Source of the DNA: an uncultured Clostridia bacterium
GTDB lineage: Bacteria; Bacillota; Clostridia; TANB77; CAG-508
Assembly: GCA_947385375.1 (NCBI GenBank)
Contig: CANDKR010000005.1
Coordinates: 41,907-105,906, forward strand
Direction of reading: 5' to 3'
DNA: 64,000 nt
Of the stretch, positions 15,446-15,724 are shown piece by piece. Position 1 is the first letter of the stretch, and every line of letters starts with the position of its first letter. The notes under the pieces are model-generated. The model did no database searches. It worked only from the letters and a program-made list of their open reading frames with translations, and was not told where the DNA came from. Both the position numbers and the translations under genes were made by a program.

Positions 15446-15521
15446 GTCCTTATAGCTCAGCAGGATAGAGCAGTCGCCTCCTAAGCGACCGATGGTGGTT
15501 CGAGTCCGCCTAGGGACACCA
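15446..15521 (+). tRNA. tRNA-Arg (anticodon CCT), CCA encoded
   Basis: cloverleaf by hand: acceptor GTCCTTA/TAGGGAC, D-arm GCTC-AGCAGGATA-GAGC, anticodon stem GTCGC/GCGAC with loop CTCCTAA, T-arm GGTGG-TTCGAGT-CCGCC, discriminator A + CCA. Confidence 0.85.
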
Positions 15522-15610
15522 AACGAAGTGCAGGTGGCACTATAAAAATGCGGACTCGAAAAGGAGGATTAGAAAATAGTCCAGTGGACTATTTTCCCGA
15601 CGCGGCTTGC

Positions 15611-15637
15611 CGAGTCCGCCTAGGGACACCAAACGAA
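15611..15637 (+). repeat. 27-nt exact direct repeat of the tRNA-Arg 3' end (CGAGTCCGCCTAGGGACACCAAACGAA), att-site-like
   Basis: identical to 15501..15527, 83 bp downstream of the first copy. Confidence 0.75.
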
Positions 15638-15724
15638 ACAACTTATAGACTGAAAAGTTTATAAGTTGTTTTTATTATAGCATTTGTCTTAGTATTGGCT
15701 TTGAATTAAAAAACGAAAAAGTCT

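Follow-up and report, generated by a model that had tools for sequence, protein, structure and literature searches.

We found that a tRNA-Arg(CCT) gene in the window (the whole 64-kb stretch of DNA that we analyzed) is followed by a palindromic unit of ~110 bp, located at positions 15528–15637, which is composed of an 83-nt spacer and an exact 27-nt copy of the tRNA's own 3′ end. The explanation that we favor, and hold tentatively, is that this unit is a discrete, non-autonomous palindromic mini-element situated at an att-like tRNA duplication, where it would have been placed by recombination.

The tRNA gene (15446–15521, plus strand) has an intact cloverleaf and an encoded CCA, and is recognized by both ARAGORN and Rfam (RF00005, 62.5 bits). 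The 27-mer CGAGTCCGCCTAGGGACACCAAACGAA is found at exactly two places in the window, both on the plus strand. Copy 1 (15501–15527) starts in the T-loop at C56 and continues through the T-stem 3′ strand, the acceptor 3′ strand, ACCA and a 6-nt trailer, AACGAA. Copy 2 (15611–15637) reproduces this tRNA 3′ end and its trailer with 27/27 identity and forms the right arm of the palindromic unit. No third copy is present in the window when up to three mismatches are allowed, and none appeared in 100 shuffles. ARAGORN, Rfam and the exact repeat search therefore confirm the central claim of the first-pass annotation, a tRNA-Arg(CCT) with an exact 27-nt duplicate of its 3′ end after an 83-nt spacer. 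Repeats that run from the T-loop to just beyond the CCA are the classic geometry of many tRNA att sites, and the description of this pair as att-like stands: it extends 6 nt past the CCA, and an empty site is known in a related species. We considered and rejected the possibility that copy 2 belongs to a second, truncated tRNA gene; neither ARAGORN nor Rfam calls one and the acceptor 5′ strand is missing. Separately, the second base of copy 2 (15612) varies between G and T within the species: three of nine contigs (L002, L005 and L079) have the variant, which shortens the exact repeat by 2 nt.

The unit is built in a fixed order, in which the genuine tRNA end (direct) is followed by an inverted copy, a scaffold (S) and the exact direct copy. 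The left arm (15528–15560, plus strand) is an imperfect inversion of the tRNA 3′ end, and hence of the right arm, giving the unit the terminal inverted repeats of a MITE. It contains B′ (15528–15542), complementary to TAGGGACACC, an A/T filler (15543–15549), and A′ (15550–15560), whose sequence GCGGACTCGAA exactly matches the reverse complement of the T-loop/T-stem segment TTCGAGTCCGC in the tRNA; read on the other strand, the whole arm is TTCGAGTCCGC-ATTTTTA-TAGTGCCACC. The inverted T-loop/T-stem segment had escaped the first-pass annotation. Scaffold S (15560–15605, plus strand) reads AAGGAGGA-TTA-GAAAA, then an 11-bp hairpin, then CCGACGCGG; its ~45 nt thus include a GGAGGA box, the hairpin and CCCGACGCGG. 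A 5-nt linker, CTTGC (15606–15610), joins S to copy 2. There is one copy of the unit in the 64-kb window.

Two spacer hairpins had been proposed from the sequence, and one of them holds. The second (15572–15596) is perfect, 11–12 bp long and conserved, with 15572–15582 pairing with 15586–15596 around an AGT loop. The first, GTGC-AGGTG-GCAC (15528–15540), is weak and lost in the homologous unit of the L021 type, and appears better read as part of the inverted copy of the tRNA acceptor/CCA end. Downstream of copy 2, an inverted repeat (15636–15676, plus strand) is predicted by minimum-free-energy folding to form an A+T-rich hairpin of 16–17 bp with a T-run, and is probably the intrinsic terminator of a tRNA-plus-unit transcript. 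The terminator that had been proposed here is thus matched by a suitable structure, but it contains too few G-C pairs for a consensus terminator scan to call it. The segment 15522–15680 has a fold z-score of −8, and the unit would probably be co-transcribed as a tRNA 3′ trailer that ends at the 15636–15676 hairpin.

Compensatory changes have maintained both the hairpin and the pairing between the arms. Across 13 scaffolds, 98.6% of the hairpin's positions are paired and three pairs have changed on both sides, a score reached in 0 of 500 shuffles. Over five units, 93.5% of the cells in the stem formed by A′ and the right arm are paired, and again three pairs have changed on both sides. Both helices therefore carry the compensatory changes expected of a structured RNA. 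The same covariation is expected of a DNA hairpin, and it is therefore no proof that RNA is the active form; the counts of G-U and C-A pairs in the hairpin and arm stem favor neither strand.

Several other identities were rejected or set aside. The GGTGG motifs could suggest a T-box, but the first hairpin is unconserved, there is no common regulated gene downstream and Rfam gives no hit. A small open reading frame after the GGAGG box was rejected because its GTG start lies 17 nt away and its frame is unconserved. We set aside a group II intron remnant, a CRISPR-like repeat, an IS110 bridge RNA and a TnpB guide RNA; either they do not predict a long target duplication, or their guide or repeat lengths do not fit.

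We compared the locus across relatives, using contigs located by way of their DUF1858 and KilA-N proteins, and found that gain or loss affects the unit as a whole and falls exactly at the repeat. Within the window's species the unit is fixed: it is present in nine of nine contigs, and the region is identical apart from the single polymorphism at 15612. A third species (79% identical to the window) is polymorphic. Its strains L021–L023 carry a homologous 86–87-nt insert and repeat their own tRNA end, GTCCGCCTGGGGACACCAAACAAAG, while in L013–L016 the tRNA is followed immediately by the same flank, and the insert and one repeat are absent. These strains are conspecific and 98–99% identical, and they provide a filled site and an empty, single-repeat site in close relatives. 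In a sister species (L006 and L007, 82–86% identity), the first 23 nt of the spacer are retained, ~46 central nt are missing, and the second copy is degenerate, lacks TAGGGA and directly abuts the leader of the GtrII gene. A fourth species (L009–L012, 76% identity) differs in its tRNA-Arg sequence and lacks the duplicate. A genome scan with the 21-mer core matched only the metagenome-assembled genome L006 of the sister species. It had been argued that finding the same duplication in relatives with no mobile genes nearby would weaken the att interpretation; the duplication is indeed shared, but mobile genes (KilA-N, prophage lysis modules) adjoin it.

Two observations on the tRNA gene itself belong here. 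Many metagenome contigs break inside the tRNA, and we rejected these breaks as evidence of excision; their positions vary along the gene, and the most plausible cause is that assemblies collapse on a tRNA common to co-occurring species. A strain 99.3% identical to the window (L017, 4223–4298) carries a chimeric tRNA-Arg, in which the upstream intergenic sequence and the tRNA 5′ half are of another species' type (GTCCTCA) and the 3′ strand is of the window's type (TAGGGAC), resulting in a C6-A67 mismatch in the acceptor stem.

Both arms of the unit track species-specific changes in the tRNA. Position 67 of the tRNA is A in the window's species and G in the L021 species, with compensation at position 6, and one trailer base is G versus A between the two. 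Both differences are mirrored in copy 2, and the inverted left arm likewise follows position 67, in the window and in L021. The boundaries of the unit are the same in these two species, which are 79% identical to one another. Between them the blocks GTGCAGGTG, GCGGACTCGAAAAGGAGGA and GAAAA...CCAGTG...TTTTCCCGACGCGGCT are conserved, and the hairpin's three central pairs have all changed in a compensatory way (TAG/CTA in the window versus GCA/TGC in L021), so that six differences amount to three pairs. The window and L021 spacers are 78% identical and the surrounding locus is 79% identical. As the unit has diverged as much as the locus around it, vertical inheritance with occasional deletion explains its distribution without current mobility.

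The same scaffold also occurs with arms matched to other tRNAs. Early scans of 2.9 million viral contigs with the core, the left end and the hairpin gave no match. Scanning the same contigs with a degenerate scaffold pattern recovered three low-GC loci, L067, L069 and L068; with a looser pattern, two of five matches were due to chance. L067 and L069 have a prophage holin-endolysin module and, after it, a 48-nt tRNA 3′ half, an arrangement like that of an attR site. After this half come a terminator-like hairpin, ACGGGAATTGAA (antisense to that tRNA's TTCGATTCCCGT with one G-T pair), the scaffold GGAGGAACAGAAAATTGTCCAGTGGACAATTTTCCCGACGCGG and 22 nt that exactly repeat the end of that tRNA. L068 has the same arrangement with a third tRNA end. 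The unit is thereby known from three tRNA contexts, two of which come from one metagenome. A metagenome scan with GCGGACTCGAAAAGGAGG gave 29 matches, all of them unrelated high-GC chance hits. In L069, a second holin-endolysin pair (8900–10024) is located ~1 kb past the unit and downstream of the lysis module of the first prophage, which suggests tandem prophage remnants at that tRNA.

Without its arms, S is found as an insertion in alphaproteobacterial insertion sequence (IS) genes. The 42 nt at 15562–15603 are 93% identical (E = 1e-7) to plasmid sequences of Neorhizobium, Paracoccus and Allorhizobium, and related copies of S occur in Phaeobacter, Brucella, Rhodovulum and others, at one to four copies per plasmid record. 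The copies that we examined are associated with transposase genes of the IS3 (L058, L060 and L061), IS110 (L059), IS481 (L062), IS21 (L063), IS5 (L064) and IS256 (L071–L073) families; among the copies listed, one lies just upstream of the gene rather than inside it, and most are in the sense orientation. Compared to a 96%-identical IS110 copy, S is a 45-nt insertion at the center of the palindrome GATGCATC, with no evident target duplication. Compared to S-free IS5 relatives (~72% identical), it is a 44-nt insertion at a site that is not the center of a palindrome. The core of the unit in the window is probably homologous to the alphaproteobacterial 45-nt insertion, to judge from the similarity of a short palindromic motif. 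The S motif was absent from 28 Gb of E. coli genomes and GenBank phage records. Our literature searches (motif sequences, BASRCI153, MITEs at tRNA genes and Bru-RS1/2) found no description of the unit; S could still be identical to a named alphaproteobacterial repeat, such as Bru-RS.

The transposase genes gave further observations. The 44–45-nt hairpin insertion GAGGAGGATCAGAAAACAGTCCAGTGGACTGTTTTCCCGACG is present in transposase genes of six IS families on plasmids of alphaproteobacteria and on viral contigs (L058–L064, L070–L073 and L080). In at least three cases it keeps the reading frame and has no stop codon, and in two of those it encodes ..EDQKTVRGxVFPT... A Leisingera IS5 transposase gene (L065, ~360–400) has a different 39-nt insertion, CCCTCTCATGGCTTGCAAGCAAACCACTGCCGGGCAGCG, at another position when compared to its relatives.

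Several steps would allow a mini-element of this kind to reach and persist at a tRNA gene. A unit carrying its own copy of the tRNA end could integrate by an att-like Campbell mechanism at the tRNA 3′ end; alternatively, it could insert and create a long duplication of the target. The unit has no coding content, so the enzyme that moves it would act in trans. Recombination between the 25–27-nt repeats could then remove the unit, and template switching or gene conversion within the palindrome could keep the arms identical to the tRNA. Several points weigh against the mini-element. Neither an enzyme nor a full-length parent element was found, and in particular our searches of viral contigs, phage records and plasmids turned up no full-length element with these arm sequences. 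To our knowledge, no transposition mechanism yields both a 22–27-nt target duplication and an inverted copy of the target. The single copy in the window, a divergence equal to that of the locus, the small number of tRNA contexts and the shortness of the palindromic motif that links S to alphaproteobacteria also count against it.

The first-pass annotation had read the repeats as a residual attL/attR pair left after the loss of an element. The att-like duplication and the filled and empty sites are real, but the 83 nt in between are a conserved, structured palindromic unit that recurs at two other tRNAs and whose core lies in alphaproteobacterial IS genes. We regard an ordinary att scar as a minority possibility. 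In such a scar, a phage, satellite or integrative and conjugative element would have used a tyrosine integrase at the tRNA-Arg 3′ end, its interior would have been deleted to leave attL and attR 83 nt apart, and the scaffold would be the integrase- or Xis-binding arm of attP. The span of the repeat and the filled/empty polymorphism fit this history, as do the variable 3′ side with a satellite-phage-like KilA-N gene directly after copy 2, and the L067–L069 units, whose neighbors are prophage lysis modules and a 48-nt 3′ half of a tRNA, as is typical of attR. However, none of the four lineages examined keeps any gene in the unit, and no full-length carrier was found among the 2.9 million viral contigs scanned for the core, left end and hairpin. 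Identical boundaries in two species with 79% identity would need one old deletion that was then conserved, and conservative site-specific recombination does not make both repeats follow species-specific tRNA changes. The presence of the scaffold alone inside alphaproteobacterial IS genes also disagrees with a scar.

A functional RNA is an unlikely reading, whereby a structured tRNA-Arg 3′ trailer would act as a small RNA or tRNA-maturation effector, with its antisense segment pairing with its own T-arm or with copy 2 as a decoy. The unit does have the same orientation as the tRNA, with no terminator in between and a terminator-like hairpin after copy 2, and the fold z-score and the compensatory changes in two helices agree with this reading. 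In three units, the antisense segment pairs over 11–12 bp with the genuine tRNA versus 6–9 bp with copy 2, and most of the alphaproteobacterial copies examined are in the sense orientation of the host gene. Yet the unit is dispensable, being absent from a conspecific strain (L013–L016) and decayed in the sister species; in L067 and L069 a terminator-like hairpin lies between the tRNA copy and the unit, and in L021 the unit has no terminator after it. Moreover, an RNA hairpin could do without a right arm that stays the same as the tRNA, no family in Rfam scores above threshold, and the G-U and C-A counts are equally indifferent to the strand. We consider it quite improbable that the unit arose by a replication accident. 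Direct-inverted-direct layouts are a known product of fold-back template switching, and snap-back or template-switch synthesis could have created such a triplication here, with a mobile 45-nt S inserted later at the tip of the palindrome. One alphaproteobacterial S does sit at the center of a pre-existing palindrome, GATGCATC, and removing S from the window's unit leaves a 9-bp hairpin with a 7-nt loop. Against this, the two-step event would need to recur at three different tRNAs, and the IS5 insertion site has no palindrome center.

Another reading, which we consider improbable, is that the unit represents a class, so far undescribed, of tiny 'self-addressed' mobile elements. Its scaffold would be recognized by a trans-acting single-strand DNA enzyme, A′ would guide it to a tRNA 3′ end, and insertion would duplicate 22–27 nt of that target. 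With a few changes in A′ the element would then be sent to a different tRNA, a possibility suggested by the Arg unit and its two counterparts at other tRNAs, and the bare 45-nt S in alphaproteobacterial IS genes would be a guide-less form.

The unit resembles several known systems and differs from each of them. The attL/attR pairs of tRNA-integrating elements have miniature derivatives, the cis-mobilizable elements (CIMEs) of Streptococcus thermophilus. With these the unit shares direct repeats of a tRNA 3′ end, a non-autonomous segment in between, an accretion-prone site, and filled and empty sites. It differs in that its segment is only 83 nt long and holds no remnants of recombination or transfer genes, and in having an inverted target copy, a cross-phylum scaffold and repeats that both co-evolve with the tRNA. 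Like MITEs, the unit is short and non-coding, has inverted terminal arms of ~30 nt and shows insertion polymorphism. Its arms, however, copy the target itself, one copy was seen per locus, and in place of a 2–10-bp target duplication there is a 22–27-nt repeat that is the arm itself; no parent IS with the same ends was seen. Folded single-strand recombination sites, such as the integron attC and the CTX phage attP, similarly use an internal inverted repeat that folds so that its stem duplex reproduces the target-site sequence. The unit's stem is only 9–12 bp, and the likeness is purely an analogy.

REP sequences, CGTC-tagged repeats and Rickettsia palindromic elements are likewise small hairpin units with conserved unpaired ends, mostly in alphaproteobacteria, that sometimes lie in genes and in frame and have no known dedicated transposase (PMC3733652). 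The minus strand of S begins with CGTC. CGTC repeats have stems of 8–9 bp directly after the tag and a CCA tail (PMC3733652), whereas in S a stem of 11 bp comes after CGTC-GGG, and a GGAGGA box is also present. The REP/CGTC class is further defined by 4–5-nt loops, a short tail and many copies, compared to the 3-nt loop of S and its one to four copies per plasmid record, and no association with tRNA 3′ ends has been described for it (PMC3733652). We also found that model positions 8–86 of the Brucella small RNA CI153 (BASRCI153, Rfam RF02604) align to the minus strand of 15548–15623, a part that includes the conserved hairpin and its enclosing stem. The alignment covers 79 of 214 model positions and scores 28.2 bits against a gathering score of 137, which falls short of membership; the match is probably due simply to a copy of this hairpin within the Brucella RNA.

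When the end of a tRNA is found in short repeats, these are commonly taken for scars that lost islands have left behind. At this locus, the supposed scar is conserved and structured, its parts match its target, and its core is common to gut Clostridia and alphaproteobacteria. If it is mobile, the unit would be among the smallest site-specific elements known, and it could point to an unrecognized enzyme with tRNA-gene hairpins as its substrate. An RNA would represent a new type of tRNA-trailer product. Whichever holds, the unit can be recognized readily and, as a marker, would improve the annotation of tRNA-linked islands in metagenome-assembled genomes.

The genes to the right of the tRNA vary between relatives. 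A KilA-N gene (15775–16641, plus strand; Pfam) lies within a single-gene cassette (15638–16711, plus strand) that has its own promoter-like site (15724–15752) and terminator-like hairpin. When compared to the sister species, the cassette is a separate insertion exactly after copy 2, which it abuts from outside the unit. At the amino-acid level, the KilA-N protein is ~50% identical to proteins encoded by Streptococcus satellite phages (Javan) and by Staphylococcus phage EW. It is followed by a GtrII-like membrane protein gene (16732–18228) and a Fic gene (18269–19279, minus strand). The KilA-N block (15638–16711) and the Fic block (18263–19411) are both absent from L006 and L007. In one strain of the window's species (L004, 11094–12029), the Fic block is at a different place, after an anti-sigma gene. 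As had been stated, there is no integrase: none is among the Pfam hits on called genes within ~6 kb to either side, and the 83-nt segment bounded by the repeats holds none.

To the left of the tRNA are a type IV coupling protein gene (13233–14951, minus strand), a pilin-like gene and a DUF1858 gene (15217–15411). The KilA-N gene, the Fic gene and a type IV secretion system (T4SS) remnant had been taken together as signs of an integration hotspot. The right side does vary, with KilA-N and Fic as separate insertions or deletions and other neighbors in other species, but the T4SS is irrelevant. It is conserved in position in all relatives and lies 5′ of the tRNA, beyond the DUF1858 gene; as an old, conserved, upstream remnant, it is therefore uninformative on integration at the tRNA 3′ end. 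Within the T4SS region (12034–14951), the coupling-protein gene is intact in the window's species (572 aa) and split into two to three open reading frames in three related species (L007, L009–L016 and L021–L024). The T4SS is a decaying conjugation remnant that is conserved in position.

Farther to the right, the bacterial small SRP RNA is encoded at 24859–24955 (plus strand). Within the region 21362–23440, a gene at 22164–23420 has 47% G+C in a 29% G+C genome and encodes a signal-peptide protein with no Pfam hit. The adjoining sequence (21362–22043) is 98% identical to the sister species, compared to 82–86% in the flanks, which suggests a recent transfer.
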